DNA of 32,000 nucleotides, taken from positions 1 to 32,000 of the forward strand of contig NQJD01000010.1 in assembly GCA_004284765.1 (NCBI GenBank), written 5' to 3'. Below the pieces are notes generated by a model, which made no database searches, had not been told where the DNA came from, and was given only the letters and a program-made list of their open reading frames with translations. Source of the stretch: Candidatus Electronema aureum (GTDB lineage Bacteria; Desulfobacterota; Desulfobulbia; Desulfobulbales; Desulfobulbaceae). Shown here piece after piece: positions 427 to 19,190 of the stretch. Made by a program: the position numbers and the translations under genes. Position 1 is the first letter of the stretch. Each line of letters starts with the position of its first letter.

Positions 427-516
427 TTCACGTAACATGTTAATTAGTTAAATAAAAAAATAACCTCTCAGGTTGTAAATTATAACACAACTGATTTAAA
501 ACTTAAACACTATATT

Positions 517-615
517 ATGGAAAAGCTCAACAACAGGCCTCGAAAATCTCTTGGATTTAAAACACCAAAAGAGCTATTTTTGGGAGACTACTTAACGGTT
601 GCACTTGGAACTTGA
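517..615 (+). pseudogene. IS30-family transposase C-terminal remnant (33 codons)
   Basis: Translation MEKLNNRPRKSLGFKTPKELFLGDYLTVALGT* matches the conserved C-terminal LNNRPRK-LG-KTP-E-F motif of IS30-family transposases. The rest of the gene is missing. Confidence 0.6.
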
Positions 616-671
616 ATTCACCCTCTAATATGTTGTCAGGAAAGCATTAATATCGTCAACACTTCAAGAAC

Positions 672-3600: not shown

Positions 3601-5051
3601 TTAAAGCTGTTGCTAAAAAGGCAGGTGGTGACGAGATTCTTCGCTCGGCTACAGGTTATATGGGTGATTTCGCACGATACGAAATCGAACCAAGGGTGGA
3701 AAACTTTCTCTCAGTGCCATTGAGCAAAGATGTGCCGTTGAATTCAGAGGATATCAAAACAGTAGAGGATATTTTTTTACTTTTACTTTCCGATGCAAAG
3801 AAAAAACAATTTGAGAATGAAGTTATACCAGCCCGTTATGATCGAACCGAAAAAACAAAAAAGATTGATATTGCGGCGGCAATGCGTTGGGTCGCCAACC
3901 GTGTCTATCGAATGGGATGGACTGCAAAACGATTTGCTGATGATCGGTCTCGACACAAGGGAGGACACGCTTACTCTCGTGACAGGCCAATTGTCGAGCG
4001 GATAGGAAAGAAGTATCAGTGGTTGGCCTTAGATGAGCTGCTGTGCCGCTTGGCTGACAATCACTGGTTTACAGGTGAATATGGCGGTATGCCAAGACAT
4101 TATTCCCGCTCGACGGATGTTGATTTTCACCGAGACATAGACCCGACTATCATTGAGGAGGAAGAACTACGGGAACAGCGTAACGGAACGTCCCAAGAGT
4201 GGGTAGATCAACCCATAATTACGCTGCCGGAAGTTGCTGAAGATGAATTGGCAGCTTGGCCTTTTCAGGATGATCCCGCCTGCCAACTGAAAAATATGAT
4301 AGAACGTCAGGATAATACAGGGACAGATTGGATGGTTCTCTATGAGCATCAAGTTGCAACTAAAAAATATCCTAAAGAACAACGAGGAGAGCATGGTCTT
4401 CGTCAACAAGAATTCCGGTTTCTTATGTCTGTTGTTGTGCGGAAAGATGAGATTAAAGATATAATCAATTCACTGAAAACAAAAGAGAAATTTGAGCTTG
4501 GCAGTTTGAGATGGGAGCCTCGTAACATGACTGACGAGGCTTTCCTCTATGAAGCCCCTTGGAGAACGACTTGGCCAGATTCCAAATGGAAATTTAACAA
4601 TTGGGATGTGCCAGAAGGAGTGGGGATAGCTTATCCTGTATGGGGCTATAACTGGGAATCACACATGGATGCCTCGCTGCCGAACGGATTCAATACCTAT
4701 CTCCCGGCTCCTTGGCTGGCAAAGGAACTAAAACTTACCCCGAAATTCAATCAAACAGGTTGCTGGGCAGCTCCAAATGGTGAAACAGTATTCAGGGAAA
4801 TTGCTGGAGAAAAAGGCGGCAGCCTCTGTTTGCTGCGTAAAGATTTTGCCGATCAACTGCTTGGTGATGATCTCTGCATTCTTTGGCTGTTGATTGCTGA
4901 AAGAAATGCTTGGCCCGGCGGAAGCAATAACAATCCCGCTTGGCGACGTTCGGAAGGACTATGCTGGCACGATGGGAAGAAACTAAGAACAGCTACTTGG
5001 AAAAGGGATAACGGCAACGGCACTTCTGCCAAATATACTGGCAAGGAGTAA
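672..5051 (+). CDS. Large P-loop NTPase (STAND/Avs-like) with N-terminal Mrr/PD-(D/E)xK-like nuclease motif and ~1000-aa C-terminal region of unknown fold
   Basis: 1459-aa ORF. Walker A is GRAGTGKSH (about nt 1725..1751) and Walker B-like is ALLLIDAINEG (about nt 1932..1964). The N-terminus has GGDGGVEAYW..IGYQAKYF, resembling the DGG-(D/E)..Q-x-K core of Mrr-type restriction nuclease domains. GC is lower than the neighbours, IS debris lies on the left flank, and there are no partner genes. Confidence 0.75.
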   Translation: MIDFSKIHGFQAGQRHSFEELVCQLARREEYPADAEFRRVEGAGGDGGVEAYWKKADDREIGYQAKYFLRTGDIDWGQIDESVAQAIQTHEKLEKYVVALPCDLTDRSGKKEQGKPGWEHWKTHVAKWKKQAAEQGNSSIQFNVWSQSELLTRLTKPTAEGLRQYWFGEVEFSQRWFREHVREGIVSLDERFHPEDHVDVHIQKLFSVLVRHPSYVDELKSKLSAIFENTLSINQFSGLPQQPDPALLANLSKAQKQLLAVQEEFALPLYKDWNIDQWIRFADELISLLEALSVWCWEYARKLERESPANNEIYRQSSVLSSLKESAEEFRSLCASEFMQAEQGRIAFIEGRAGTGKSHLFGKEASRVADEGGAVILALGQRMNNEEPWSQFAKLFHLPNKNADVLLGTLDAAGEASGKRALLLIDAINEGPGSRYWQNHILSFVETVQKHKNIACIISCRSEYFPVAIPDSLAQKTPTFSIRGFETHDEQVNAAKVFLDRRGIARPSTPWLAPEFVNPLFLRSVCVSLARDGKSEFPTGLHGTRHILSYYLDSVGKNIKAAEGSLASLPAAVKNSVVQLANTMVSHRNDYLTMSEAEQVIGKCFPPAAPHSEASWLLVLLSNGLIRRDPNPQASNDPLAEAEDVIRFSFQRFQDFLMGDTLVADHKDAGTLFSDSGPLQFILDEGRISWQWRGLSEALSSIIPEKFGCELIDILPDKQLVHNPWDILAYHPLEINDLFIESIKWRERKAFSERSLELFNKLVQYPLEVLLEISVSSDHPWNAELLHRNLAKLKLPERDAFWTVWLNERSAENDSSVGRLIDWCLSGQVPHTNRENQFLAGLTLCWFFTASNRIIRDKATKALSSLFIVRADIFPDLLERFRDVDDLYVLERILAAAYGASCRDQERGRLESYSRVVYKYIFADNKPPLGLLLRDYAFGIIELARYHDVLASEVDFDCCNPPYQSKRVCFNITEEQLKAVAKKAGGDEILRSATGYMGDFARYEIEPRVENFLSVPLSKDVPLNSEDIKTVEDIFLLLLSDAKKKQFENEVIPARYDRTEKTKKIDIAAAMRWVANRVYRMGWTAKRFADDRSRHKGGHAYSRDRPIVERIGKKYQWLALDELLCRLADNHWFTGEYGGMPRHYSRSTDVDFHRDIDPTIIEEEELREQRNGTSQEWVDQPIITLPEVAEDELAAWPFQDDPACQLKNMIERQDNTGTDWMVLYEHQVATKKYPKEQRGEHGLRQQEFRFLMSVVVRKDEIKDIINSLKTKEKFELGSLRWEPRNMTDEAFLYEAPWRTTWPDSKWKFNNWDVPEGVGIAYPVWGYNWESHMDASLPNGFNTYLPAPWLAKELKLTPKFNQTGCWAAPNGETVFREIAGEKGGSLCLLRKDFADQLLGDDLCILWLLIAERNAWPGGSNNNPAWRRSEGLCWHDGKKLRTATWKRDNGNGTSAKYTGKE

Positions 5052-5093: not shown

Positions 5094-7645
5094 TTACTTC
5101 GCACACCATTCATACGCATTCTGAAACATCCGCAGCCACGGCGAGACCTCCATCTCTTGCATCTCCCTCGGCAGCCAATGGCATTGCCACGGCAGGAAGG
5201 CCCGCTCCGGGTGCGGCATCAGGGCTAAGTGGCGGCCATCAGGCGAGCACAGACCGGCGAATCCGTCCGGCGAGCCGTTGGGGTTGAAGGGATAGGCTTC
5301 CGTGGCCGCGCCGCTGTCGTCGGCATAGACCAGCGGCACCAGCTTCTGGCTGATCACCTCGGCCCGCACCGCCGCGTCCGGGAAGTGCAGCAGGCCCTCG
5401 CCATGCGCCACGTGAATGCCGAAGACGAGGCCGCTCATACCGCGCAGCATCATGGCCGGGCTGTCGGTCACGCGCACGGTCGTCCAGCGCGACTCGAAGC
5501 GGCCCGATGTGTTATGCACGAAACGCGGCTGCTTCTCCGCCGCTAAGCCGCGCCACGGCACCCAGCCGAGCAGTCCAAAGAGCTGGCAGCCGTTGCAGAT
5601 GCCGAGGGTGAACGTGTCGGGCCGATTCAGAAACTCGTCGAACATTGCCCGCAGCCGCTCGTTGAAGAGGATGGTTGCGGCCCAGCCCTTGGCCGAGTCC
5701 GGCACGTCGGCGTAGGAGAAGCCCCCGACTGCCGCGATGCCCCGGAAGCCGTCCAGCGTCACCCGCCCGGCCAGCAGGTCGGTCATGGTGATGTCCCACG
5801 GCTCGAAGCCCGCAGCGTAGAAGGCGGAACTCATCTCGCGGTCGGAGTTGGAGCCTTCATCGCGGAGGATGGCGACCTTGGGCTTGCGCTCAGCGGTGAG
5901 CAGAGCCTTGGGTGAGGACTGCGGCGAGAAGGGCAGATGATAGGCCGGAGCGGCGCGATCGAAGACGTTCGTTTTTTCCTGATCAGCACAGGCGGGATTC
6001 ACTTGCAGCCGCTCAAGCTGGTAGCTGGTCTCTTCCCACTCCTGCCGCAGGACGCGCATGTCCTCATTCAGCACAAGCGTATCATTGCAGCGGATGCGGA
6101 TGCGCTTCTCCGCCGTCGTTGTGCCCAGCACTTCGCAGCTCACCTCGGCCACAGCGAGACGGTGCCTGATCTGCTCAAGCTGCTCCTGCCGACATTCGAT
6201 CACCAAGCCCAGCTCCTCAGCGAAGAGGGTGGGAACAGCCTCGCCCTGAACTTCGATCTCCACGCCGCAGTTGCCCGCAAAGGCCATCTCCAGAACGGTG
6301 GTGATCAGGCCGCCGTCGCTGCGGTCGTGACCAGCGAGAATCAAGTCTCGGTCGATCAGCTCCTGCACCGCAGCGAATGCCTGCCGAAGCAGCACTGAAT
6401 CGTCCATGTCCGGGCTTTCGTCGCCAAGGCTGCCGAGGGTCTGCGCCAAAGCTGAACCACCCAGCCGCGCCTTGCCCGGTGCCAGATCAATCAGCAGCAA
6501 TGCCGAACCTGGCTCCTTGATGTCCGGCGTGACTGCCTTGCGTATGTCGCTCATCGCGGCATACGCGGAGATGACTAACTCACGAGGGGACTTCACCGTC
6601 TCCGCGCCGACCTTGGTCGCCATCGAGAGCGAGTCCTTGCCGCCGTCAACCGCCATGCCGGTGGCGATCATCGCATCGCGCATGGCCCGCGCCGCGTCGT
6701 TCATCGCCGCGCCTTCGCCCGCCAGCTTGGGTGCCCACATCCAGTTGGCCGAGCACTTGACCTGCTCCGGGTCGTCAATCTTCGCCCAGACCAAGTTCGT
6801 CCACGCCTCGCCAACCGCCATGCGTGCGCCTGCTGCTGGGTTGATCAGCATCTTAATCGGTTGCTCGCCAATGGCTGTGGCAATGCCGGTCAGACCAAAG
6901 TGCGACTGCGCCACCACCGCCACATCACCGACGGTGAGCTGGAGCGGGCCGCAGCACTGCTGCCGGGCGATCAAGCCGGTGACGGAGCGGTCAACCTTGT
7001 TGGTCAGGAAGCGTTTCGAGCCGACCGAGACGAGGCGGAGGACGTTGCGGAGGTGATCGCGAAGGGATGTAGGGGCGAACCTTGTGTTCGCCCCTTGTTG
7101 CCCGGAGCCGGGTAGGGCGAATACAAGATTCGCCCCTACAGGTATGCGCTGATCCTCAAACGTCTTCTGCGGAATATGCCCCAGCACCTCCTTCAGCTCC
7201 ACGTCAACGGGCGTGCTGCCGTCCTGCTCGTCCGAGACCACAAAGCGCAGGTCGCCGGTGACTTCGCCCAGCACCTCGCAGGCCACTTTCTCCCGCTCGC
7301 AGATGGCGAGGAACTGCTGGATATTCTCCGGCTTGATCAGCAGGCCATTGCGTTCTTGATACTCGGCCACGTAGATTTCCAGCACCGACATGGTGGGGTC
7401 GCCGACCCGTATCTTGCGGATTTCGATGCGCCCGCCGGAGTGCTCGACCAGCTCCTTGAGCACGTTGGCCGGGCCGCCTGCGCCCTGGTCGTGGATGACC
7501 TCGATCAGCGTCCTGCCGCCCATCTCATTGCAGGCGCGGATGACCCGGTTCATCTTCTGCTCCATCTCCGCGTCGCCGCGCTGCACCGCGTTGAAGTCCA
7601 GCTCCGCTGCGTTCTCGCCTTGGAGCATGGACGAGGCCGCGCACG
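5094..7645 (-). pseudogene. purL: 5'-truncated copy of phosphoribosylformylglycinamidine synthase (large single-chain PurL), C-terminal two thirds, ORF still intact
   Basis: The 844-aa ORF aligns colinearly with residues ~439..1282 of the full copy at 13908..17756 (MLQGENAAELDFNAVQRGDAEMEQK.. onward; the first ~100 residues are identical). Homology (AASSMLQ) runs upstream of the ATG up to the stop codon of the preceding gene. It therefore starts inside the synthetase domain and lacks the N-terminal third. Confidence 0.9.
7069..7139. repeat. REP doublet (REPIN/BIME-like): two inverted GTAG-type palindromic units inside the truncated purL ORF
   Basis: Unit 1 is GTAGGGGCGAACCTTGTGTTCGCCCCT (stem 7071..7080 / 7086..7095). 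The reverse complement of 7112..7139 is GTAGGGGCGAATCTTGTATTCGCCCTAC, near-identical to unit 1 but inverted. The ORF stays open through it (..PVGANLVFALPGSGQQGANTRFAPTS..). Confidence 0.7.
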
Positions 7646-7649
7646 CCTG

Positions 7650-8726
7650 TCAATTCATCTTCAGCACCAGCACCTCCACCAGCCTGCTGGAATACCCGCT
7701 CCTGATCATCTTCACCAGATCAGCGAAGTTATTCACTGTGATATTCAGACTGCTGAGAGCAGAGCCGCTGAAGCCCGGCAGCACGTATGCGCCATTGGCG
7801 AGAACCTGCACCGCCGCGCCCGCCCTGCCGCCTTCCGTCATATCGAGCAAATTGAGCGACAAGCTGCCGGTGTGCAGATCAAGGATGGCCTGAATGCGCA
7901 CGGTCTCATCCGCGCTCAAGCTGCCGCCGGTGACGGTGACATACGGCGACGCGGCCTTGTCCGTCAGGATGCCGACATCCGGCGGATTGGGGTGGCCGAA
8001 ATTGGTCAGCGTCAATGGGGTGCGCAGCTTGCGGCGGTAGATGCCAGTGCGCAAAGTGCCGTTCGCGGTGTAATGGGTGGCGATGGAGAGGGTGTACTCG
8101 TTGTTCCACGGGTCGTTCTGCGCCGGGATGTCAGGCAGCAGCGTGACTTCCGTGTTGGCGATGCCGACAAAGCGCGTCTGCACGGTTCGCCCACTCCGTG
8201 TGCCCTCGATCACGCAGGCTTCGTCCGGCTTCTTTGGGTCAAAGAGCAGATTGCTGCCGGTGAGCTGCAAGGCCCCGCCGCTGTGCAAGATATCTTTCAG
8301 GCCCAGCACTGTGTCTTCCGCCGCCGTGATCAGCGGGGCCTTTTCGGTCATGGGCAGACGTTCAATCTGCACCGCCCGCTGCACGGTCTCGGTGCAGGCT
8401 TTGGACGCATGGACGCGCACATTGAGCATGTCCTCAACCGGCGGCAGCGGGTCGTCCGGCGACTCCAGCCGTGCGCTGAAGGAGAGGCCGAAGGTGAAGG
8501 CATCCGGCAGTACGGTCTGGTTGCCGTTGATCAGGTTTGCGCCAATCCGCTCCATCGCCGCCATGATGATGGTTTTGGCATCCTCTTGGGCGTAATTGGG
8601 GTGCATCTGCACCACCTCGGCGGCCAGCTCATCATAGCCGAGCGTGTCTTTAGGCACAAAACGGACGGAATACGACGGGGGCGTGGTCAGGGCATTGCCC
8701 TCGATCCGCACTTGCACAGTTGCCAT
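7650..8726 (-). CDS. HU-like DNA-binding domain protein with DUF4469-type Ig-like domain(s), copy A
   Basis: 358-aa ORF with RBS AAGGAGAAG upstream. The N-terminus MATVQVRIEGNALTTPPSYSVRFVPKDTLGYDELAAEVV..LINGNQTV..F.GLSFSARLESPDDPL follows the pattern of Bacteroidetes-type HU-HIG proteins (N-LT-P-Y-ARV, then L-G-V, then G-F). The middle part (LQLTGSNLLFDPKKPDEACVIEG..NEYTLSI) follows the DUF4469 pattern. It is a paralogue of 17818..18891. The family assignment is from memory of motif patterns, not a search. Confidence 0.7.
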   Translation of the reverse strand: MATVQVRIEGNALTTPPSYSVRFVPKDTLGYDELAAEVVQMHPNYAQEDAKTIIMAAMERIGANLINGNQTVLPDAFTFGLSFSARLESPDDPLPPVEDMLNVRVHASKACTETVQRAVQIERLPMTEKAPLITAAEDTVLGLKDILHSGGALQLTGSNLLFDPKKPDEACVIEGTRSGRTVQTRFVGIANTEVTLLPDIPAQNDPWNNEYTLSIATHYTANGTLRTGIYRRKLRTPLTLTNFGHPNPPDVGILTDKAASPYVTVTGGSLSADETVRIQAILDLHTGSLSLNLLDMTEGGRAGAAVQVLANGAYVLPGFSGSALSSLNITVNNFADLVKMIRSGYSSRLVEVLVLKMN

Positions 8727-8771: not shown

Positions 8772-8800
8772 AGCGTAAGACGGGCTGCGGCTTCTGTCAA
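8772..8800 (-). promoter_or_regulatory. Putative sigma70-type promoter of HU-like gene A
   Basis: On the minus strand, TTGACA (8800..8795), a 17-nt spacer, then TACGCT (8777..8772). The layout is equivalent to the promoter of copy B. Confidence 0.4.
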
Positions 8801-8836
8801 CAGAAAAGATAAGGAAAGCGGTCTGCTGGATGATGA

Positions 8837-8997
8837 CACCAGTGAGGAGGAAGTCTTCTCACTAGTGTGAAGGACGGCTGCACACCAGTGTCGAGACGCG
8901 GACATCACTGGTGTGTAGCGTGGCTCCTCACTGGTGAGGAGAGGGAGAGATAAGCAGTGAGGAGAGTGGCTGGACACTGGTGAGGAGAAGCGGCGGC
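8837..8997. repeat. Array A: 7 tandem units with exact 23-bp phasing and a near-palindromic CACYRGTG core
   Basis: Unit starts are 8837, 8860, 8883, 8906, 8929, 8952 and 8975. Units: CACCAGTGAGGAGGAAGTCTTCT / CACTAGTGTGAAGGACGGCTGCA / CACCAGTGTCGAGACGCGGACAT / CACTGGTGTGTAGCGTGGCTCCT / CACTGGTGAGGAGAGGGAGAGAT / AAGCAGTGAGGAGAGTGGCTGGA / CACTGGTGAGGAGAAGCGGCGGC. Confidence 0.85.
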
Positions 8998-9027: not shown

Positions 9028-9816
9028 TCAGGATTTTTCAGCGATGATCACGGCGGAGCGGATGTAGTTCTCAATGCCGCTGTCAGCCATCCAGTCCTTG
9101 ATGAAGGCCCGGCTGTCCTCCTTGATCTCCACCGAGACTGCGCTGAAGCCTGCCTGCTTCAGCATGGCCTCTATCTCGGCAACGGGCGCGGCCCCAGCAG
9201 CGCAGCAGGTGTAGGCTTCAGTGATTGCCCCCAGCTCCGGCGGCAGCGGGGCAACAGCCACCACATCGGAGATGGCCAATCTGCCGCCCGGACGCAGCAC
9301 CCGGCAGGTCTCGGCAAAGACCTGCGCCTTGTCCGGCGAGAGGTTGATGACGCAGTTGGAGATGATCACGTCCACGCTGCTGTCGGCCACCGGCAGATGC
9401 TCGATCTCGCCCAGCCTGAACTCGACATTGGCATAGCCGCCTTTCCGCGCGTTGTCACGGGCCTTGGCCAGCATCTCCGGGGTCATGTCCACGCCGATGA
9501 CCCGGCCTGCCGCGCCCACCTGCCGGGCGGCAAGGAAGCAGTCAAAGCCGCCGCCGCTGCCCAGATCGAGCACGGTCTCACCGGCTTGCAGCTCCGCTAT
9601 CGCCTGCGGATTGCCGCAGCCTAAGCCCATGTTGGCCCCATCCGGCACAGCGGCCATCTCCTCCGCCGCATAGCCGACGCTGGCCGAGGCTAACGGGTTG
9701 CCTAACGGCTGCGGAGCGCATTGAGAGGCACCGCAGCAGGAGCCGCCTGCAACCGCAATCCCACCGTATCTGGCCCGCACCTCAGCGCGGAGGGCATCCT
9801 TCACTTGATCAGACAT
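9028..9816 (-). CDS. arsM: Arsenite S-adenosylmethionine methyltransferase
   Basis: SAM-binding motif VLDLGSGGGFDCF, plus VDVIISNCVINL, RPGGRLAISD and N-terminal cysteines (GGSCCG). Start chosen at MSDQVKD (ATG 9816) because AAGGAG lies 5-10 nt upstream; the ORF-track start at 9873 would overlap the upstream gene. Confidence 0.85.
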   Translation of the reverse strand: MSDQVKDALRAEVRARYGGIAVAGGSCCGASQCAPQPLGNPLASASVGYAAEEMAAVPDGANMGLGCGNPQAIAELQAGETVLDLGSGGGFDCFLAARQVGAAGRVIGVDMTPEMLAKARDNARKGGYANVEFRLGEIEHLPVADSSVDVIISNCVINLSPDKAQVFAETCRVLRPGGRLAISDVVAVAPLPPELGAITEAYTCCAAGAAPVAEIEAMLKQAGFSAVSVEIKEDSRAFIKDWMADSGIENYIRSAVIIAEKS

Positions 9817-9829
9817 AACGCAGCTCCTT

Positions 9830-10513
9830 TTAGAAGAAATAGACAGCACAGTAATAGCCGCCGATGAGAACAAACAGCAGGCCGGTTATTCGCCGCGCCC
9901 AGATTTCAAAGGCAGCAATCCGGTTGAAGGCTTGGGCGACCTTGTTGGTGCCAAAGGCCAGCAGCAGGGCGAAGAGCAGCACCGGCAAGCCCGTCGCCAG
10001 CCCGTACACGCCGGGCAGCAGTATTCCTGACTGCTGCTGCACAGCCAGCGGCAGGAGCGAGCCGAAGAACAGGGCTGCTGAGGTCGGGCAGAAGGAGAGG
10101 GCGAAGACCATGCCCAGCAGCCCGGCCCCGCCGATGCCCAGAGAGTCCGCCTTGTTCTGCAAGGCCGCGCTCAGGCCGCTGGAGCCGACAGGCAAGGGAA
10201 TCAGCTCCAGCAGAATCAAGCCAACCACGATCAGCATCGGGCCAAGGGCCATGTTCATGTGCTTCTGGAGCACCTGCGACAGCGAGGGCGCGGAGAGCAG
10301 GCTGCCGACCAAGAGCATTCCTAAGAGCAGATAGGCCAGGGTGCGTCCGGCGGTGTAGAGCAGGCCCGCTTGCAAGACGCTGGCCGGTTTACCCACGCGG
10401 CGGCCCACATAAGATATCGCCGCGATGTTGGTGGTCAGCGGGCAGGGGCTGATGGAGGTGAGGATGCCGAGCCAGAAGGCCGAGGCCAAAGGCACGAGGA
10501 TGGACTCGCTCAT
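9830..10513 (-). CDS. CcdA/DsbD_2-like thiol-disulfide transfer membrane protein
   Basis: 227-aa polytopic membrane protein with LTSISPCPL in the first helix, typical of DsbD/CcdA transmembrane-domain proteins. Its ATG overlaps the upstream stop (ATGA at 10511..10515). Confidence 0.65.
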   Translation of the reverse strand: MSESILVPLASAFWLGILTSISPCPLTTNIAAISYVGRRVGKPASVLQAGLLYTAGRTLAYLLLGMLLVGSLLSAPSLSQVLQKHMNMALGPMLIVVGLILLELIPLPVGSSGLSAALQNKADSLGIGGAGLLGMVFALSFCPTSAALFFGSLLPLAVQQQSGILLPGVYGLATGLPVLLFALLLAFGTNKVAQAFNRIAAFEIWARRITGLLFVLIGGYYCAVYFF

Positions 10514-10995
10514 CAGCCTTTCCCGTTGAGCAGCAGGTTGATTTCATCGCGGAGGTATTGCGCAAAGGCCGCTTCATCATGGACAAGCTGCCAGACCTTA
10601 TCCAGCCGCCGCCACTTGGCCTCCTTGCCCTGCTTGATCTGGGAGACCACCACCGAGCGAGTGGCTAACTGATACTCTTCAACAAAGTGCTCGTTCTCGC
10701 TCTTGTCCACGTTGACCACCTGCACTTCCATCGAGCCGTCCTTGAGCTGTCCGGCAAACGACTCCTCCACGGTTTTCTTCGTCAGTGCCTCAATCTTCTT
10801 GCAGGTTGTGCAGCGCTGGTTGCCGTGGAAGTAATAGACCCGCGTCGTGCTCTGCTCAGTCTTCTGGGCCGCTGCGGGTGGCTGACTGCTGCCAGCAGCA
10901 CTCGTTTCCGCTGCTGACTCTGCGAAGCTGCCGCCCGCAGCAATGAATAAGGCCAGCAGGACGGCTGCAATGCTTTTGCTCTTTATCGTGCTCAT
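10513..10995 (-). CDS. Secreted thioredoxin-fold protein (ArsF-like family, tentative)
   Basis: 160 aa with N-terminal signal peptide MSTIKSKSIAAVLLALFIAAGGSFA and a C-x-x-C motif in YYFHGNQRCTTCKKIE. Located in the ars operon. Confidence 0.6.
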   Translation of the reverse strand: MSTIKSKSIAAVLLALFIAAGGSFAESAAETSAAGSSQPPAAAQKTEQSTTRVYYFHGNQRCTTCKKIEALTKKTVEESFAGQLKDGSMEVQVVNVDKSENEHFVEEYQLATRSVVVSQIKQGKEAKWRRLDKVWQLVHDEAAFAQYLRDEINLLLNGKG

Positions 10996-11008
10996 CGTGC
11001 CGCGCTCC

Positions 11009-11242
11009 TTATGCAGACAGCATCTTCTTGAGTTCCTCGACAGAAGGCACCATGCCGAGAAGTTTCACCTCACCATCCACAACCAAGGCAGGTGTCGTCA
11101 TCACACCAAACGATATGATCTGACTGATGTCCGTGATCTTCTCCAGCTCGAAATCAAGCTGAAGGGCTTTGGCGGCAGCTTCGGCGTGTTCCGTCAGCTT
11201 CTTGCACTTGGGGCAGCCAGTGCCCAGTATTTGGATTTTCAT
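11009..11242 (-). CDS. Small thioredoxin-family protein (redox-active disulfide protein 2 type)
   Basis: 77 aa, MKIQILGTGCPKCKKL...TPALVVDGEVK: a canonical CPxC glutaredoxin-like small protein often linked to arsenic permease genes. Confidence 0.8.
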   Translation of the reverse strand: MKIQILGTGCPKCKKLTEHAEAAAKALQLDFELEKITDISQIISFGVMTTPALVVDGEVKLLGMVPSVEELKKMLSA

Positions 11243-11285
11243 TGCATTACCCTTGTTATTTGTTTATCCGAACAGAGTACAGAAA

Positions 11286-11735
11286 TCACTGCGCCTTTCC
11301 AAGAGCGTTGATGAAATCCCTGGCAGTGTCGCCGCGAAGATTCTCTGCGAGTCCGACCAGTCCGTCGGTCAGGTATCTCGCCTCAAGACCTTTTGAGCGG
11401 AGGTACACCATAGCGATGATTGCGCGGTCTTTGTGCGGACATGCGGTAACAATCATCTTGCCCTTGTCAAGCTCTGCAAGCCTTTTCGGCAGCTCGTTCA
11501 AAGGGATGTTGATTGACGGCATGACCTTCCACGCTGCATATTCCTCTGCAAACCTGATGTCAATCAATTGCGCTTTCCCTTCCTTCAAGAGTTTGACAAG
11601 CTCTTTGCTGTCAACATTCATTTCCTCCTTTGCGGCATAATCAAAGGCGGCAATGTATTTCTCCAGCGGGGCATCGCTTGCGTATGCAGGCAGGCACATT
11701 GCCGCCAGCAGGAAGATGAGTGTCAGCTTTTTCAT
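11286..11735 (-). CDS. Secreted rhodanese-domain protein
   Basis: Start chosen at MKKLTLIFLLAAMCLPAYA (ATG 11735, RBS AAGGAGAA upstream). Carries LIDIRFAEEY and the active-site loop region VTACPHKDRA, as in rhodanese/ArsC-like sulfurtransferase domains. Confidence 0.7.
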   Translation of the reverse strand: MKKLTLIFLLAAMCLPAYASDAPLEKYIAAFDYAAKEEMNVDSKELVKLLKEGKAQLIDIRFAEEYAAWKVMPSINIPLNELPKRLAELDKGKMIVTACPHKDRAIIAMVYLRSKGLEARYLTDGLVGLAENLRGDTARDFINALGKAQ

Positions 11736-11811
11736 ACGGTTCTCCTTGTTGATGAACGCCCCCGCAGGACGGGGGATCGTTGATTGCGTCGAACAGCCCG
11801 CCTTGGTTGCG

Positions 11812-12339: not shown

Positions 12340-12352
12340 TGTTTACCTGCCC

Positions 12353-13405: not shown

Positions 13406-13423
13406 CGCGTTTTCTCCTGAGAA

Positions 13424-13907: not shown

Positions 13908-16900
13908 TTAAACAGACCTCCCGCACCACTCTCTCGCATTCTGGAACATCCTCAGCCACGGCGAGACCTCCAGCCCCTGCATCTCCCTTGGCAGCCAATG
14001 GCACTGCCACGGCAGGAAGGCCCGCTCCGGGTGCGGCATCAGGGCTAAGTGGCGGCCATCAGGCGAGCACAGCCCGGCGAAGCCGTCCGGCGAGCTGTTG
14101 GGGTTGAAGGGATAGATTTCCGTGGCCGCGCCGCTGTCGTCGGCATAGACCAGCGGCACCAGCCGCTGCCCGATCACCTCGGCCCGCACCGCCGCGTCCG
14201 GGAAGTGCAGCAGGCCTTCGCCGTGCGCCACATGAATGCCGAAGACCAGGCCGCTCATGCCGCGCAGCATCATGGTCGGGCTGTCGGTCACGCGCACGGT
14301 CGTCCAGCGCGACTCGAATCTGCCCGATCTGTTGTGGATGAAGCGCGGCTGCGCCTCTGCGTCTAATCCGCGCCAAGGCACCCAGCCGAGCAGACCAAAG
14401 AGCTGGCAGCCGTTGCAGATGCCGAGGGTGAAGGTGTCGGGCCGATTAAGAAACTCATCGAACATGGCCCGCAGCCGCTCGTTGAAGAGGATGGTCGCGG
14501 CCCAGCCTTTGGCCGACTCCGGCACGTCGGCGTAGGAGAAGCCACCCACAGCCGCGATGCCCCGGAAGCCGTCCAGTGTCACCCGCCCGGCCAGCAGGTC
14601 GGTCATGGTGATATCCCACGGCTCGAAGCCAGCGGCATAAAAGGCGGAACTCATCTCGCGGTCGGAGTTGGAACCCTCATCGCGAAGTATGGCGACCTTG
14701 GGCTTGCTTGCCGCAGTCAGCAGAGCCTTGAGCGTAGGCTGCGGGGTGAACGGCAGATGATAGGCCGGAGCGATGCGGTCATAGATGCTCTGCCGTTCCG
14801 CTTCCGCACAGGCAGGGTTCACTTGCAGCCGTTCGAGTTGATAGCTGGTCTCCTCCCATTCTTGACGGAGGACGCGCATGTCCTCATCCAGCACCAGCTC
14901 GCCGTTGCAGCGGATGCGGATGTACTTGTCTGCCAGCGAAGTTCCCAACAGCATACAAGGCACCTCAGCGACGGCCAATATCTGCCTGATCTCCTCAAGC
15001 TGCTCCTGCCTGCATTCCAGCACCAAGCCCAGCTCCTCAGCAAAGAGAGTGGGAATTGCTTCGCCCTCAATCGCAAGCTCCAGCCCGCAGTTGCCCGCAA
15101 AGGCCATCTCCAGCAGAGTGACGATCAGGCCGCCGTCGCTGCAGTCGTGGCCGGATAAGATCAGGTCTTGCGCGATCAGCTCCTGCACCGCTGCGAATGC
15201 CTGCCGGAGCAGCACTGGGTCGTCCATGTCCGGGCTTTCGTCGCCAAGGCTGCCCAGTGTTTGCGCCAGAGCTGAACCGCCCAGCCGAGTCTTGCCCGGA
15301 GCTAAGTCTATGAGCAGCAGAACCGACCCCGGCTCTTTAATATCCGCTGTGACGACCTTGCGGATGTCGCTCATGGCCGCGTATGCGGATATAACCAGCT
15401 CGCGGGGCGACTTCACCGTCTCGCTGCCCACCTTGGTGGCCATTGAGAGCGAGTCCTTGCCGCCATCCACGGCCATTCCAGTGGCGATCATCGCGTCACG
15501 CATGGCCCGCGCCGCGTCGTTGAGGGCCGCGCCTTCGCCGGGCAGTTTGGGCGCCCACATCCAGTTGGCCGAGCACTTCACCTGCTCCGGGTCGTCAATC
15601 TTGGCCCAGACAAGGTTCGTCCATGCCTCGCCGACGGCCATGCGCGCCCCTGCCGCTGGGTTGAGCAGCATCTTGATCGGCTGCTCGCCGATAGCTGTGG
15701 CAATGCCTGTCAGACCAAAGTGCGACTGCGCCACCACGGCCACATCGCCCACCGTGAGCTGAAGCGGGCCGCAGCACTGCTGCTGCGCAATCAGGCCGGT
15801 GACGGAGCGGTCAACCTTGTTGGTGAGGAAGCGTTTGGAGCCGACCGAGACGAGGCGGAGGACGTTGCGGAGGTGATCACGGACGGATGGGCAATGCCGT
15901 AGGGGCAATTCATGAATTGCCCCTACGGGTACACGCCTGTCCTCAAAGGTCTTCTGTGGGATATGCCCCAGCACCTCCTTCAGCTCCACGTCCACGGGCG
16001 TGCTGCCGTCCTGCTCGTCCGAGACGACAAAGCGCAGATCGCCGGTGACTTCGCCCAGCACCTCGCAGGCCACCTTCTCGCGCTCACAGATAGAGAGGAA
16101 CTGCCCGATATTCTCCGGCTTGATCAGCAGGCCGTTGCGCTCCTGATACTCGGCCACGTAGATTTCCAGCACCGACATGGTGGGGTCGCCGACGCGAATC
16201 TTGCGGATCTCGATGCGCCCGCCGGAGTGCTCGACCAGCTCCTTGAGCACGTTGGCCGGGCCGCCCGCGCCTTGGTCGTGGATGACCTCGATCAGCGTCC
16301 TGCCGCCCATCTCGTTGCAAGCGCGGATGACCCGGTTCATCTTCTGCTCCATCTCCGCGTCGCCGCGCTGCACCGCGTTGAAGTCCAGCTCCGCCGCGTT
16401 CTCGCCTTGGAGCATAGAGGAAGCCGCGCCGCCGCCGAAGCCCACCCGGTACGCAGGCCCGCCGACCTGCACGATCAGCATCCCCTTGGCCGCCTGCTCC
16501 TTCTTAATATGGCGGTCGTCAATCTGGCCGATGCCGCCGGTGAACATGATCGGCTTGAGCCAGGCCCAGCGTTCGCCGCCCTCCACGCGCAGGTCAAAGG
16601 AGCGGGTGAAGCCCTGAATCAGCGGCTCGCCGAACTTGTTGCCGTAGTCGGACGCGCCGTTGCTGGCTTCGATCTCGATGGTCAGGGCCGAGGCGAGGTT
16701 GGAGGGGCAAGGATGGTGCTGCTCCCAAGGCAGCTCGTAGCCGGGAATGTGCAGATTGCCCACGCAGTAGCCTGCCGTGCCTGCCATGACAAAGCCGCCC
16801 TTGCCTGTGCCTTGCACGTCACGGATGCGCCCGCCAGTGCCGGTCTCTGCGCCGGGGAAGGGTGCCACGCCAGTGGGGAAGTTGTGCGTCTCGGCAGTCA

Positions 16901-17756
16901 GCAAAGGATGAAAGCGGACATCCACCGCCCGCAGCGGCGAGGGCTGACCGGGCTGCTCCGGCTGCAAGGTGCTGATGTCATGCCCGGCGACCACGCTGGA
17001 GTTGTCGCCAAAGGCCACCAGCGAGCCTTTCGGGTTGGCCTTCAGGGTCGCCTTGACCACATCGAAGAGCGTGCCGTCCTGCTCCACGCCGTCTACCACC
17101 TGCTTGCCCCGGAAATAGCCGTGCCGCGAGTGCTCGGAGTTGGCGTTGTTGAGATCCATGATCTCGACAATGGTCGGGTTGCGCTGGTGCTTGCCGACAA
17201 AGTAGTCGTAATAGAACTGGCGGTCGCGCTCGTCCATCGAGATGCCGGGCAGATTGAGCAGCGCGTCCGGCCCCTTGCCGAGCAGGTCAACCTCGTACAC
17301 CGGTTCTGGCTGGATGCCGGTCTCGAAGGTGGTGAGCGGGTGCGAGTAGTGGCACTCAGTCATCCGGTCGTGGTGTGCGGCGATGAAGGCGGCCATGTCC
17401 TCGCCCTCTGGCACCACGTACACGCGGGAACGCTCGGCGCGGGTGACGCAGTCCAAGCCAGTCGCCCGGCAGATGGAAACGAGGTTGGACGACCAAGCGG
17501 TGGCGAAGTTCAGGCGCGGGCCAACCTCAACCACGCGCCCGCCGGTCAGCACCGGTTCAAGCGAGACGGTCTCGGCAATGAAGCCGTCGGCCAGCAGAAG
17601 GAGCAGGCGGCGCAGCTCCTCGTCAGTCAGCGGGCGGGCAGATTCGATGTTGAAGCAGTAAGCGCGGGCCGTGTCAAGGCGGCGGTGCAGGCGGGTGATG
17701 GGCATGATATGGTTCCGGGTTTTTATAAATGAAAGGGCCGTCCGCTCCCCGTGCAT
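13908..17756 (-). CDS. purL: Phosphoribosylformylglycinamidine synthase, single-chain large PurL (synthetase plus glutaminase domains)
   Basis: 1282-aa ORF. It carries AIR-synthase-like repeats (DVQGTGKGG, GGAASS, DQGAGG) and a C-terminal class-I glutamine amidotransferase (LGICNGCQL, HPER). An alternative start MPITRLH at 17705 is possible and would place the 17735..17772 hairpin in the leader. Confidence 0.95.
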   Translation of the reverse strand: MHGERTALSFIKTRNHIMPITRLHRRLDTARAYCFNIESARPLTDEELRRLLLLLADGFIAETVSLEPVLTGGRVVEVGPRLNFATAWSSNLVSICRATGLDCVTRAERSRVYVVPEGEDMAAFIAAHHDRMTECHYSHPLTTFETGIQPEPVYEVDLLGKGPDALLNLPGISMDERDRQFYYDYFVGKHQRNPTIVEIMDLNNANSEHSRHGYFRGKQVVDGVEQDGTLFDVVKATLKANPKGSLVAFGDNSSVVAGHDISTLQPEQPGQPSPLRAVDVRFHPLLTAETHNFPTGVAPFPGAETGTGGRIRDVQGTGKGGFVMAGTAGYCVGNLHIPGYELPWEQHHPCPSNLASALTIEIEASNGASDYGNKFGEPLIQGFTRSFDLRVEGGERWAWLKPIMFTGGIGQIDDRHIKKEQAAKGMLIVQVGGPAYRVGFGGGAASSMLQGENAAELDFNAVQRGDAEMEQKMNRVIRACNEMGGRTLIEVIHDQGAGGPANVLKELVEHSGGRIEIRKIRVGDPTMSVLEIYVAEYQERNGLLIKPENIGQFLSICEREKVACEVLGEVTGDLRFVVSDEQDGSTPVDVELKEVLGHIPQKTFEDRRVPVGAIHELPLRHCPSVRDHLRNVLRLVSVGSKRFLTNKVDRSVTGLIAQQQCCGPLQLTVGDVAVVAQSHFGLTGIATAIGEQPIKMLLNPAAGARMAVGEAWTNLVWAKIDDPEQVKCSANWMWAPKLPGEGAALNDAARAMRDAMIATGMAVDGGKDSLSMATKVGSETVKSPRELVISAYAAMSDIRKVVTADIKEPGSVLLLIDLAPGKTRLGGSALAQTLGSLGDESPDMDDPVLLRQAFAAVQELIAQDLILSGHDCSDGGLIVTLLEMAFAGNCGLELAIEGEAIPTLFAEELGLVLECRQEQLEEIRQILAVAEVPCMLLGTSLADKYIRIRCNGELVLDEDMRVLRQEWEETSYQLERLQVNPACAEAERQSIYDRIAPAYHLPFTPQPTLKALLTAASKPKVAILRDEGSNSDREMSSAFYAAGFEPWDITMTDLLAGRVTLDGFRGIAAVGGFSYADVPESAKGWAATILFNERLRAMFDEFLNRPDTFTLGICNGCQLFGLLGWVPWRGLDAEAQPRFIHNRSGRFESRWTTVRVTDSPTMMLRGMSGLVFGIHVAHGEGLLHFPDAAVRAEVIGQRLVPLVYADDSGAATEIYPFNPNSSPDGFAGLCSPDGRHLALMPHPERAFLPWQCHWLPREMQGLEVSPWLRMFQNAREWCGRSV
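15899..15926. repeat. Perfect 28-bp GTAG-type palindrome (REP-like) inside full-length purL
   Basis: GTAGGGGCAATTCA|TGAATTGCCCCTAC is an exact 14+14 palindrome, translated in frame as ..VGAIHELPL... It occupies the same linker position as the REP doublet in the truncated copy. Confidence 0.75.
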
Positions 17757-17817: not shown

Positions 17818-18891
17818 CTACGCCGTCTCAACCTTCAGGACATCCACCACCCGCCCGCCGTAGTTGTTGCGGATCATCTCTTTCAGTCCTGCGTACTCAT
17901 TCACCCGGATGCTCAGGCTGGAGACCGCCGAGCCGCTGAATCCTTGCAACGTCACTGCCCCGTTCGCGGTCACGCTCACTGCTGCGCCCACCGCTCCGCC
18001 CTCTTTCATATCTAACAGGCTGAAGAGCAGCGCGTCGGTGCGCGCATCAAAGACCGCCTGAATGCGCAGGGTCGTATCTGCCGCCACGCTGCCGCTGGTG
18101 ACGCTGACATGCGCGCTGGCCTCCTTGCCCGTGAGAATGCCAACCTCTGGCGGATTCGGGTGGCCCATCTTGGTCAAGGTCAGCGGCGAGCGCAGCATCC
18201 GTCCATACGTTCCAGTGCGCAGCGTCCCGTGTTCGCTGTAGCGCGTGCTGACGGAGACCGTGTATTCGTTGTTCCACGGATGCGGCGGCGCAGGCAGGTC
18301 CGGCATGACGATGATCTCGCTGTCCTCAATCTTGCCGAAGCGGGTCTGCGTGATCTTGCCGCCTGCCGTGCCTTCGATCACGCAGCCGCTCCCCTGCTTG
18401 CGGTCGAAATGCAAATCAGCACCAGTAAGCTGGAGCAGGCCCGCCGGATTGAGCACATCCTTCAGTTCCAGCACCGTGTCCTGTACTGTGCTGATGAGCG
18501 GTAGCTTCTTCTCCTCCGGCAGGCGTTCAGTTTTGGCATCTCGGCGGATGGCTTCAATAAAGGGCTGGGAGGCATGGATGCGGACTTGCAGGCATTCGTC
18601 TAACGGCGGCAACGGGTCGTCCGGGCTGTTGAGTTTGCCGGTGAAGGAAAGGGAGTAGGTCACGGCGTTCTCCTCAGTCACCTGCTCGCCATTGAGCAGG
18701 CTTTCGGCGATGAGCTGGTTGTGGAGGTCAATGAAGGTGCGGAACTCCTCCTCGCTGTAGTTGGGCAAAGCCTTGGCCATCCGGGCGGCCATGTCCGCCT
18801 TACCAAGCACGTTGCGGGCTATGAAGCGGGGCCGCCAGGACGGCGGGGTGGTGAGGGCGTTGACTTCCGGTCTCCATTGAATCGTTGCCAT
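17818..18891 (-). CDS. HU-like DNA-binding domain protein with DUF4469-type Ig-like domain(s), copy B
   Basis: 357-aa ORF with RBS AAGGAGAAA upstream. It is colinear with copy A over the full length (MATIQWRPEVNALTTPPSW.., LNSPDDPLPP, LQLTGADLHFD, PWNNEYTVSV, GHPNPPEVGILT), with roughly half the residues identical by manual alignment. It lies directly upstream of purL on the same strand. Confidence 0.7.
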   Translation of the reverse strand: MATIQWRPEVNALTTPPSWRPRFIARNVLGKADMAARMAKALPNYSEEEFRTFIDLHNQLIAESLLNGEQVTEENAVTYSLSFTGKLNSPDDPLPPLDECLQVRIHASQPFIEAIRRDAKTERLPEEKKLPLISTVQDTVLELKDVLNPAGLLQLTGADLHFDRKQGSGCVIEGTAGGKITQTRFGKIEDSEIIVMPDLPAPPHPWNNEYTVSVSTRYSEHGTLRTGTYGRMLRSPLTLTKMGHPNPPEVGILTGKEASAHVSVTSGSVAADTTLRIQAVFDARTDALLFSLLDMKEGGAVGAAVSVTANGAVTLQGFSGSAVSSLSIRVNEYAGLKEMIRNNYGGRVVDVLKVETA

Positions 18892-18941: not shown

Positions 18942-18970
18942 ATCCTAAGAAGCTGCCGCTGTTTTGTCAA
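18942..18970 (-). promoter_or_regulatory. Putative sigma70-type promoter of HU-like gene B (possibly also driving purL)
   Basis: On the minus strand, TTGACA (18970..18965), a 17-nt spacer, then TAGGAT (18947..18942). Array B begins 14 bp upstream of the -35. Confidence 0.45.
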
Positions 18971-18983
18971 GACAAAGAACAGC

Positions 18984-19121
18984 GTGGAGGCATAGGAAAA
19001 AACAGTATGCCTCGATATCGTAGAACGCTATGCCTGCATACCGTCCAGCGTCATGCCTGCATGAAGGAAAACAGTATGCCTCGATACCGTTTTGCGCTAT
19101 GGAGGCATGGCGCGGAAGAGC
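18984..19121. repeat. Array B: 6 tandem units with exact 23-bp phasing and an ATGC-NN-GCAT-type core
   Basis: Unit starts are 18984, 19007, 19030, 19053, 19076 and 19099. Units: GTGGAGGCATAGGAAAAAACAGT / ATGCCTCGATATCGTAGAACGCT / ATGCCTGCATACCGTCCAGCGTC / ATGCCTGCATGAAGGAAAACAGT / ATGCCTCGATACCGTTTTGCGCT / ATGGAGGCATGGCGCGGAAGAGC. Units 1 and 6 carry the core in flipped orientation. Units 1/4 and 2/5 also share their tails, giving a 69-bp super-period. Confidence 0.85.
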
Positions 19122-19162: not shown

Positions 19163-19190
19163 TTGACAGTGGCTGGTTAAGAGGTATTCT
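19163..19190 (+). promoter_or_regulatory. Possible sigma70-type promoter of the FG-GAP gene
   Basis: TTGACA (19163..19168), a 16-nt spacer, then TATTCT (19185..19190), about 60 nt upstream of ATG 19254. Confidence 0.3.

Follow-up and report, generated by a model that had tools for sequence, protein, structure and literature searches.

What links two HU-like genes of Candidatus Electronema aureum to the tandem repeats upstream of them and to the purL sequences beside them? The 32,000-nt stretch of its genome analysed here (the window) carries the same order of repeat array, HU-like gene and purL sequence twice on the minus strand, as array 1, HU1 and purL' in copy 1 and as array 2, HU2 and purL in copy 2. 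The preliminary description, which recognised this order, read the two copies as one type of locus in which a DNA-binding protein and its repeats diverge fast together beside a slowly evolving housekeeping gene, and compared it to incompatibility and specificity determinants.

Two HU-like loci beside purL sequences

In copy 1, the seven 23-bp units of array 1 (cores 8835..8984, minus strand) lie upstream of HU1 (CDV28_1103; 7650..8726, minus strand), whose 358-aa product matches the Ca. Electronema aureum protein P0001 at 100%. A putative HU1 promoter can be read from the sequence at 8772..8800 (minus strand), with TTGACA at 8800-8795, a 17-nt spacer and TACGCT at 8777-8772, although it scores under the threshold of the consensus scan; an AGGAG ribosome-binding site follows. 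In copy 2, array 2 has six 23-bp units (cores 18983..19109, minus strand) upstream of HU2 (17818..18891, minus strand; 357 aa), and the predicted HU2 promoter (18942..18970, minus strand; TTGACA, 17-nt spacer, TAGGAT) has 10/12 matches in the consensus scan. The full-length purL for FGAM synthase (13908..17756, minus strand) is listed as an ORF of 1282 aa, with its true start probably a few codons inside. An FG-GAP repeat gene (19224-20438) diverges from HU2 and has a promoter-like site on the plus strand (19163..19190; TTGACA-16-TATTCT, 10/12 in the consensus scan), so array 2 sits between two divergent promoters in an intergenic region common to both genes; an FG-GAP gene is likewise divergent from the HU gene at another family locus (L018). 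Besides purL and the FG-GAP protein, the neighbours of the HU genes include an ArsM-like methyltransferase, while an Avs2 defence gene adjoins HU1 within a low-GC island. No known RNA families were found within the 32-kb window.

The purL sequences had been estimated to be about nine-tenths identical in protein, and the computed values agree (90.7% amino-acid and 87.3% nucleotide identity over 839 codons; dN 0.059, dS 0.46, omega 0.13). Their first 100 or so residues, described as identical, are nearly so, with 98 of 100 aligned codons identical. The preliminary description had missed that the copy-1 sequence is a fragment without the first 441 codons: purL' (5094..7647, minus strand) is an intact 844-codon ORF corresponding to purL codons 442-1282, begins 3 nt past the HU1 stop, covers positions 455-1306 of the NCBIfam FGAM_synt profile and matches 16433-13916 at 86.8% over 2552 nt in blastn. 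An assembly artefact at the HU1/purL' junction was ruled out, as the protein maps to the closed 2.94-Mb chromosome OW818638.1 and an independent assembly of E. nielsenii (contig L001) has the identical junction. The two purL sequences of the window and the purL of a related locus in MAG S01.Bin068 (L025) are roughly equidistant (88-90% nucleotide identity), a pattern that favours no particular origin for the partial second copy.

The HU-like proteins are indeed about half identical, with differences over their whole length (52.9% amino-acid and 61.5% nucleotide identity; dN 0.42, dS 1.11, omega 0.38), and are far more divergent than the purL pair. However, this does not reflect fast divergence of one locus, since HU1 and HU2 are paralogs from different old lineages. 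Their dS is 2.4 times that of the purL pair, and HU2 is closer to L011 from another species (78%), to L025 (73%) and to CDV28_11746 of E. aureum (73%) than to HU1. The true HU1 ortholog in E. nielsenii (L001) is 90% identical to HU1 (116 of 120 N-terminal residues; omega 0.17), and its array retains the motif and register of array 1. The contrast between the two gene pairs therefore stems from old paralogy combined with a partial second purL copy, rather than from unusually fast evolution of a single locus. One positional pair does fit the picture of a fast-changing HU gene and array beside a slow purL: HU2 is 73% identical to its counterpart in L025, which likewise precedes a full-length purL, and the two have different arrays, while their purL proteins are 93.4% identical. 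Orthologs are under ordinary purifying selection (omega 0.17-0.35), and dN/dS exceeds 1 in no region. Positive selection on the N-terminal hairpin found no support, with pooled dN/dS of 0.26 for pairs with different arrays versus 0.19 for pairs with the same array; a raised hairpin value was found only for HU2 versus L025 (0.80, from approximately 9 non-synonymous and 4 synonymous changes). Linkage to purL, which the earlier picture took as part of the locus, is present at just 2 of 79 family loci, an outcome that the preliminary description had itself listed as counting against its reading, and the purL adjacency is incidental. When two adjoining gene pairs are compared within one genome, old paralogy can thus be taken for rapid evolution.

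A 23-bp lattice of palindromes in register with the promoter

The cores of the two arrays are unrelated, as had been noted (CTCAC-YR-GTGAG in array 1 versus TATGC-NN-GCATA in array 2), but they share a design that the first reading missed: six or seven units, a 23-bp period and palindromic cores, just upstream of a TTGACA-N17 promoter. The full array 1 site is CTCCTCAC..GTGAGGAG in unit 3, and the array 1 dyads lie approximately 114, 138, 160, 184, 206, 230 and 252 nt before the HU1 ATG. Motif matches fall at exact 23-bp multiples in array 1 (8835/8858/8904/8927/8973) and at exact 23-bp steps in array 2 (19006/19029/19052/19075/19098). Within the window each motif clusters in its own array only, far above chance given the approximately 3.6 (array 1) and 12.7 (array 2) matches expected over the whole window. 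Tandem Repeats Finder (TRF) reported period 23 for just 2.4 units of array 1 (8836-8891) and missed array 2, since outside the core the units have degenerated, so that an analysis of motif and periodicity was required.

The same lattice was found across the family. The periodic-segment score exceeded the 99th percentile of shuffled sequence at 58 of 67 loci, and the mean best score was 30.3 at period 23 versus 4.4-6.6 at the other periods from 8 to 35. Arrays hold 2-9 (median 5) palindromic sites of 12-18 bp, and the palindrome differs from array to array. An identical 23-bp lattice also occurs in Electrothrix in a subfamily only 31% identical to HU1. Some members (P0020/L080, L002, L003 and L030) were found to have no adjacent array.

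A TTGACA-N17-TAnGnT element is conserved at the 67 family loci, and distances from dyad to ATG are alike across paralogs. In approximately 34 of 48 scored loci, the distance from the proximal dyad downstream to the first base of the -35 hexamer is 23n + ~2.5 nt; HU1 and HU2 deviate, with an array-to-promoter phase of 17.5-18.5. For the family as a whole, the 23-bp sites keep register with a promoter of sigma-70 type that is itself conserved.

A cable-bacteria branch of HU-HIG proteins

HU1 and HU2 belong to a set of HU-HIG/DUF4469-type proteins that has expanded specifically in cable bacteria. All 79 family loci come from Electronema, Electrothrix or Desulfobulbaceae MAGs, with 4-17 copies per genome in the better-sampled genomes (most of 14), counts that are lower bounds. 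On closed chromosomes the copies are dispersed (at least five in E. halotolerans and four in Electrothrix YB6). Mean pairwise identity is 0.46 in the N-terminal part and 0.55 in the C-terminal part. The genes are solitary, and when the ORFs lying up to 4 kb from 70 loci were all clustered, no conserved neighbour or partner gene emerged. Variable genes, those for TPR_10/12 proteins among them, are frequent neighbours of the family, and in distant relatives fusions to beta-propeller or PPC-type domains occur. The expansion marks cable-bacteria genomes, and our literature searches gave no description of it: neither DUF4469 nor the locus tags were mentioned, and no account of the family in cable bacteria was found.

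The AlphaFold model of HU1 (pLDDT 90.9) comprises an N-terminal beta-hairpin, an HU-like domain and two Ig-like domains. Its best structural match is 4FMR (Foldseek E = 1e-11), which is also the best PDB sequence match (E = 0.003; residues 28-223 of the family profile align to 4FMR 32-223). HU/IHF chains match the N-terminal domain in Foldseek (TM 0.66-0.82), and the family profile matches PDB HU proteins at E = 0.01-0.04. Pfam HU-DNA_bdg is sub-threshold in both proteins (HU1 18.7 and HU2 22.3 bits; cut-off 30), while DUF4469 reaches 22.6 bits in HU1, exactly at the cut-off, with no match in HU2. Among relatives, P0283 and P0286 pass the PF18291 and PF00216 cut-offs, P0283 passes PF14848 as well, and DUF4469 scores 35.7 bits in P0259 and 28.7 bits in P0286.

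These features are shared with the Ig subclade of HU-HIG proteins (PF18291/PF14848 with DUF4469, PF14734; BVU_2165, PDB 4FMR), in which an HU/IHF-like N-terminal domain with an N-x-L/V-T-T extension is likewise followed by a C-terminal Ig-like DUF4469 domain that packs against the HU domain, and which shows the same lineage-specific expansion, rapid divergence and lack of a conserved operon partner. The cable-bacteria proteins differ in having a second Ig-like domain (~358 versus ~260 aa), in their taxonomic distribution, which is not that of Bacteroidetes, and in their private 23-bp-lattice arrays. Such arrays were rejected as a general HU-HIG trait, with no period from 6 to 44 standing out in the upstream regions of 29 non-redundant BVU_2165-like Bacteroides loci. 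Within HU-HIG, the cable-bacteria proteins form a separate branch marked by the extra Ig domain.

The HU/IHF fold of the N-terminal domain is by nature dimeric, and IHF shows that it can carry a sequence preference. However, classical HU and IHF are small, basic proteins with long beta-ribbon arms, whereas the family proteins are of about 358 aa and acidic (mean pI 5.35), confine net positive charge to residues 1-30, carry a conserved acidic loop (SPDDPLPP) in place of the DNA-binding arms and add two Ig domains. For the Bacteroides relative 4FMR, the Ig domain was argued to occlude the DNA cleft, and the clade was considered unlikely to be made up of sequence-specific factors (Burroughs et al. 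2017, PMC5499826). This was the only analysis found of what is a large family without a known function, and it argued against sequence-specific binding.

Co-variation of proteins and arrays, and its explanations

Protein and repeats vary together, as expected of the specificity pair that the preliminary description had envisaged: arrays tend to be more alike the more identical their proteins are (Mantel r = 0.40, p = 0.0005). Arrays were shared by 25 of 48 pairs with N-terminal identity of at least 0.70 and by 13 of 1046 pairs below 0.60. Pairs with similar N-termini and less similar C-termini had arrays in common in 11 of 23 cases, as against 0 of 8 pairs with similar C-termini and dissimilar N-termini, and pairs 88% identical C-terminally and 58% identical N-terminally have unrelated arrays. 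Among related pairs, a shared array was best predicted by residues 12-26 (AUC 0.85) and the first Ig domain (AUC 0.83), in contrast to the helices (AUC 0.61). For example, near-identical helices with different hairpins go with different arrays, while L011 and L039 have both hairpin and array in common. Specificity here thus tracks the added N-terminal hairpin and first Ig domain, not the arms. No array was shared by any of 114 within-genome paralog pairs, compared with 39 of 1014 between-genome pairs. Co-variation could arise partly from physical linkage and shared descent, as C-terminal identity, too, goes with similar arrays (Mantel r = 0.36). Together, these patterns suggest that each family protein is the partner of its own private array, giving many protein-DNA pairs that do not cross-react.

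Based on this co-variation and on the position of the arrays, we consider it reasonably probable that each paralog binds its own array and autoregulates. A dimer would read its palindrome chiefly via the basic N-terminal hairpin (approximately residues 12-26) and the first Ig domain, and dimers would load side by side every 23 bp to form a cooperative nucleoprotein stack reaching up to the -35 hexamer, setting transcription of the gene, by repression or activation, and sometimes that of a divergent neighbour. As the sites are tandem, slippage or unequal exchange may carry a new site variant along an array; we propose that such spreading would let protein and array shift specificity together, so that paralogs within a cell stay orthogonal. 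From the private array and the 15-residue hairpin one can predict the DNA partner of each protein and the residues that determine the choice. If correct, the family would supply dozens of naturally occurring orthogonal pairs of protein and operator, of use for studying the evolution of specificity and possibly for synthetic biology.

More speculatively, and in our judgement improbably, the up to ~17 orthogonal 'address' pairs per chromosome could serve as landmarks and do more than autoregulate: multi-dimer complexes on the 23-bp lattice might, for example, help to organise, anchor or segregate the nucleoid in filaments that are long and probably polyploid, while the two Ig domains would attach them to other structures of the cell. 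This would provide the first concrete molecular function for the enigmatic HU-HIG family and a new mode of DNA reading, by an N-terminal hairpin and an Ig domain on an HU scaffold.

The incompatibility or specificity determinant originally suggested (partition, iteron-Rep or phage immunity) has several parallels here, in that tandem sites at approximately two helical turns adjoin the promoter of the presumed binder, in register with it, and specificities within a genome are orthogonal. The omega repressor of pSM19035, ParR/parC and ParG are likewise small dimers thought to act cooperatively on 4-10 short repeats in either orientation at their own promoter, with a beta-strand element as the likely sequence reader and an array that doubles as operator, as proposed here. 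Similarly, iteron replicons (R6K, RK2, pPS10) carry four to nine sites at a ~22-bp spacing, close to the 23 bp seen here, beside an autoregulated binder gene, and their proteins and sites co-evolve and define specificity groups. However, the partition proteins have a ribbon-helix-helix fold, are plasmid-borne with a partition ATPase and bind contiguous units of 7-20 bp, whereas the proteins here combine HU-like and Ig-like domains, are neither ribbon-helix-helix nor HTH, and are chromosomal with many paralogs per cell; no ParA, ParM or TubZ NTPase recurs near the 70 loci. In an iteron replicon, winged-helix Rep monomers bind asymmetric direct repeats at the origin, whereas the units here are palindromes, found in both orientations, and the HU proteins match no Rep family in Pfam or NCBIfam; 4-17 copies on one chromosome make an origin role unlikely. 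Neither HU1 nor HU2 matches PHROGs or PADLOC, no phage genes recur among the neighbours, and neither a Rep nor an integrase gene is conserved nearby. Given also the dispersal of copies over closed chromosomes and neighbours such as purL, the ArsM-like methyltransferase and the FG-GAP gene, this explanation is highly unlikely.

The arrays might instead be read by another common factor, or be curvature-type structural elements, with the co-variation due to linkage alone, each array being duplicated and diverging along with its gene. This would fit the C-terminal correlation, which shared descent predicts, the acidic, armless proteins and the array-free Bacteroides relatives. We regard it as unlikely, if less so than the other alternatives, as a single factor cannot account for dozens of unrelated palindromes on one lattice, and neutral repeats would not hold 6-9 palindrome copies between species amid diverging flanks. 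Linkage is also at odds with the unrelated arrays of C-terminally similar pairs, with arrays that differ exactly where the hairpin differs between near-identical helices, and with the lack of shared arrays within genomes. A role in biological conflict has been proposed for the HU-HIG proteins of Bacteroidetes, and the pattern described for them, of lineage-specific expansion and diversification without operons (Burroughs et al. 2017, PMC5499826), is repeated here. On this reading, foreign DNA or other molecules would be intercepted by the proteins, with the arrays as self-titration or sensing sites that set expression. The Avs2 gene beside HU1 in its low-GC island, the variable genes and TPR_10/12 proteins around the family and the fusions in distant relatives are in keeping with such a role. 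Nevertheless, it appears doubtful, and about as improbable as the landmark function, because the HU-like proteins are without a PADLOC match, the orthologs are under purifying selection throughout, and each array is closely coupled to the promoter of its gene.

Private palindrome arrays on a 23-bp lattice

Each of the two HU-like/Ig protein genes of the window, HU1 (7650-8726, minus strand; CDV28_1103) and its paralog HU2 (17818-18891, minus strand), is preceded by its own array of palindromic 23-bp units. Array 1 (8835-8984) contains seven units upstream of HU1, with the core CTCAC-YR-GTGAG when read in register, while array 2 (18983-19109) contains six units upstream of HU2, with the core TATGC-NN-GCATA, and the two cores are unrelated, as a preliminary description had stated. 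In the 32-kb window, clustering of either motif is confined to its own array, where it recurs at exact 23-bp steps. That description had overlooked that the arrays are alike in architecture and that both end just upstream of a TTGACA-N17 promoter.

The lattice extends across the family. The best periodic-segment score, averaged over 67 upstream regions, was 30.3 at period 23 versus 4.4-6.6 at other periods from 8 to 35, and the period-23 score exceeded the 99th percentile of shuffled sequence in 58 of the 67 loci. The palindrome (12-18 bp) is different for each array (e.g. CGAGCAAGC|GCTTGCTCG, CTCCATGC..GCATGGAG and CCACTATAGTGG), but unrelated arrays have common dyad distances from the ATG (approximately -112, -135, -158, -181, -204, -227 and -250). 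Measured from the start of the -35 hexamer, the proximal dyad of most scored loci is offset upstream by 23n + ~2.5 nt (n = 0 in 2 loci, 1 in 10, 2 in 12, 3 in 6 and 4 in 4), and the promoter (cTTGACA-N17-TAnGnT) and a GGAG ribosome-binding site are conserved family-wide. HU1 and HU2 are exceptions, as their array-to-promoter phase differs from that of most loci, and at two loci (L040 and L046) a real array unit overlaps the -35 hexamer. Arrays were absent from L002, L003 and L030, and from the proximal promoter of the E. aureum paralog CDV28_1606 (L080 3280-4010, OW818638.1). Here, the gene is separated by a 155-aa low-GC ORF from an upstream TTGACAG-N17-TAGGAT promoter, and remnants of CGAGCGTTCC-like repeats are present; the arrangement looks like an insertion splitting an older array-promoter from its gene.

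The same lattice occurs at Electrothrix loci (L162, GAGCATGCTC; L163; L167, GCAAGCATGCAATCG) of another subfamily, whose HU and first Ig-like (Ig1) domains are only 31% identical to those of HU1 and whose promoter type differs; at L165, three family genes occur in tandem without arrays, one of them an 837-aa fusion. For BVU_2165-like genes of Bacteroides, 29 non-redundant upstream sequences gave no periodic array at periods 6 to 44. Together, these distributions indicate that the lattice is an old trait of the cable-bacterial branch, and not of the HU-HIG clade overall.

Candidatus Electronema aureum is a freshwater cable bacterium. Its CDV28_1103 is a 100% match to the HU1 product, and a closed 2.94-Mb chromosome carries this protein. 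A protein search returned 889 relatives, including at least four paralogs within E. aureum, and scanning a single genome for each species identified 79 loci, all in Electronema, Electrothrix or Desulfobulbaceae MAGs, with copy numbers of ~4-17 per genome as lower bounds. Among 1.84 billion cluster representatives searched, 850 clusters were related, and more distant members scored above the Pfam cut-offs for HU-HIG, DUF4469 and Bac_DNA_binding (one protein also for HU-DNA_bdg). The literature yielded no paper on DUF4469, these locus tags or the HU1/HU2 family in cable bacteria. This cable-bacteria-specific HU-Ig expansion, each member with a private 23-bp-lattice array, appears to be undescribed, and it is directly testable.

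Co-variation of arrays with the N-terminal hairpin

Array profile similarity rose with the identity of the proteins (Mantel r = 0.40, p = 0.0005) and followed the N-terminus, which supports the earlier proposal that protein and repeats form a specificity pair. Where N-terminal identity was 0.70 or more, 25 of 48 pairs shared arrays, against 13 of 1046 below 0.60; pairs with similar C-termini and dissimilar N-termini never shared arrays (0/8), while the reverse combination did so in 11 of 23. Among related pairs, the best predictors of a shared array were identity in the N-terminal hairpin (residues 12-26; AUC 0.85) and in Ig1 (0.83), with the HU helices (0.61) and second Ig domain (0.57) being weaker. 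The clearest case is that of HU2, L025 and L011/L039, whose helices are nearly identical. Their palindromes are of three kinds, with an array in common only between L011 and L039, which have a common hairpin (MTTPQSYWIRF, versus LTTPPSWRPRF in HU2 and LTTPQSYRMLF in L025). Within genomes the arrays are orthogonal: none of 114 paralog pairs shared an array type, compared with 39 of 1014 pairs between genomes (Fisher p = 0.027), and the absence of sharing within genomes extends even to paralogs with 76-81% N-terminal identity.

The AlphaFold model of HU1 (pLDDT 90.9) comprises a beta-hairpin at the N-terminus (residues 2-24), a pair of HU-type helices with a small sheet, an acidic loop (SPDDPLPP) that is conserved and takes the position of the DNA-binding arms of HU, and two Ig-like domains. 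The nearest structure was 4FMR (BVU_2165 of Bacteroides vulgatus, HU-HIG Ig subclade), the top Foldseek match (E = 1e-11), which the family profile also matched by sequence (E = 0.003); HU and IHF chains aligned to the N-terminal domain (TM 0.66-0.82). Family proteins are acidic (mean pI 5.35) and net positive only at residues 1-30, a charge pattern that fits the hairpin as a putative DNA reader and argues against nucleoid coating. In some distant relatives (P0286, 642 aa; P0334, 837 aa; P0297, P0304 and others), the HU-Ig-Ig module is fused to long C-terminal regions, in which repeats match DUF6242 and EPTP models and a PPC pre-peptidase-type match is weak (below threshold); this architecture hints that the Ig part docks to non-DNA partners.

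Paralog lineages and the purL neighbour

HU1 and HU2 are 52.9% identical in amino acids and 61.5% in nucleotides (dN 0.42, dS 1.11, omega 0.38), while the adjoining partial purL copy (purL', 5094-7647, minus strand) and the full-length purL beside HU2 (13908-17756, minus strand) are 90.7% and 87.3% identical over 839 aligned codons (dN 0.059, dS 0.46, omega 0.13), including 98% of the first 100. These values bear out the earlier estimates by eye of about half and nine-tenths (the first ~100 purL residues had been called identical) and confirm the observation as a whole that the HU pair is far more diverged; its interpretation was only partly supported. In dS, the HU pair is 2.4 times as diverged as the purL pair, and HU1 and HU2 differ greatly because they are separate paralog lineages. 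HU1 is a more distant relative of HU2 than are L011 (78%) and L025 (73%), both from other species, and a further E. aureum paralog (73%), and the true E. nielsenii HU1 ortholog (L001) is 90% identical (dS 0.35, omega 0.17; 116 of 120 N-terminal residues) with the motif and lattice of array 1 retained. Rapid evolution of a single locus, as previously proposed, is thus not what the pair records.

The proposed tie to purL was likewise not upheld, since purL adjoins a family gene in only two of the 79 loci and its linkage is therefore incidental. These are L025 (MAG S01.Bin068), where purL is full length, and L001, which reproduces the HU1/purL-codon-442 junction of the window; the missing first 441 codons of purL', and its start 3 nt past the HU1 stop codon, had previously been overlooked. 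The idea of a syntenic locus with a fast-changing HU gene fails for HU1/HU2 but holds in weaker form for one positional pair, HU2 and L025, each directly upstream of a full-length purL. Their proteins are 72.8% identical (dN 0.21, dS 0.60) versus 93.4% for the purL products (dN 0.042, dS 0.35), DNA similarity ends at 12 nt upstream of the ATG, and their arrays bear no relation to each other. Their dN/dS is 0.80 in the hairpin versus 0.14 in the rest of the N-terminal domain, with only ~13 changes; pooled over many pairs, no region exceeded 0.32.

The 844-codon ORF of purL' is still intact, and comparison with the E. nielsenii copy (L001 1311-1758) over 149 codons gave 26 synonymous and 10 non-synonymous changes (omega ~0.10), such that the fragment may either still be under purifying selection or be homogenised by gene conversion. 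As no terminator separates the two, purL' is possibly co-transcribed with HU1. The N-terminal part of HU1 (1-125) resembles L001 only, while its C-terminal part (126-358) is 82% identical to L002; similarly, the N-terminal part of HU2 resembles L025 and L039, and its C-terminal part CDV28_11746. These differing nearest relatives suggest recombination between paralogs.

Possible functions and neighbouring genes

On this sequence evidence, each paralog probably recognises its own array and regulates its own gene. Dimers would bind cooperatively to their palindromes every 23 bp, successive dimers spiralling around the DNA because 23 bp is ~2.2 helical turns, and the stack would extend to the -35 region. 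Tandem sites could also allow all copies to change in concert as protein specificity shifts. That the adjacent protein does not read the arrays is unlikely. Burroughs et al. 2017 (PMC5499826) described HU-HIG as expanded, fast-diverging and operon-less, considered sequence specificity unlikely and put forward a biological-conflict function; a conflict-type role has a rather low probability here, as does the idea that paralog-array pairs act as orthogonal landmarks on the chromosome that organise the nucleoid within filaments. Least likely is an interpretation as a partition, iteron or immunity system, originally drawn from the co-divergence of protein and repeats. Partition and iteron roles do not hold, and no conserved partner gene emerged when all ORFs within 4 kb were clustered across 70 loci.

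TPR_12/TPR_10 proteins homologous to a window ORF (31023-31943, minus strand) occur immediately upstream of the array-gene module in ~9-12 of 70 loci (L019, L026, L040, L047, L048, L054 and others), which could reflect chance, since these TPR proteins themselves form a multi-copy family. The window also encodes an Avs2 (AVAST type 2) anti-phage protein of 1459 aa (672-5051, plus strand; PADLOC 1839 bits, NCBIfam Avs2 740 bits), which has no Pfam match; its gene is in a low-GC island (46% GC, 1-5050; adjoining DNA 60-64%) abutting purL' at the 3' end of the latter. HU2 is divergent from a gene for an FG-GAP repeat protein (19224-20438, plus strand) with a 168-bp internal tandem repeat in 3.7 copies (19743-20365). 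Array 2 is located in their common intergenic region, between the two divergent promoters, and could also control the FG-GAP gene; at L018, the family gene likewise has a divergent FG-GAP neighbour. The interval from purL to array 1 holds an arsenic/redox-type block (9028-13750, minus strand) encoding an ArsR-family HTH protein, an ACR3-type (SBF) transporter, an Fe-S protein, a rhodanese, a glutaredoxin-like protein, a DsbD_2 membrane protein and an ArsM-like methyltransferase, and ACR3 homologs (88% amino acid identity) lie directly downstream of the family genes at L006 and L004.
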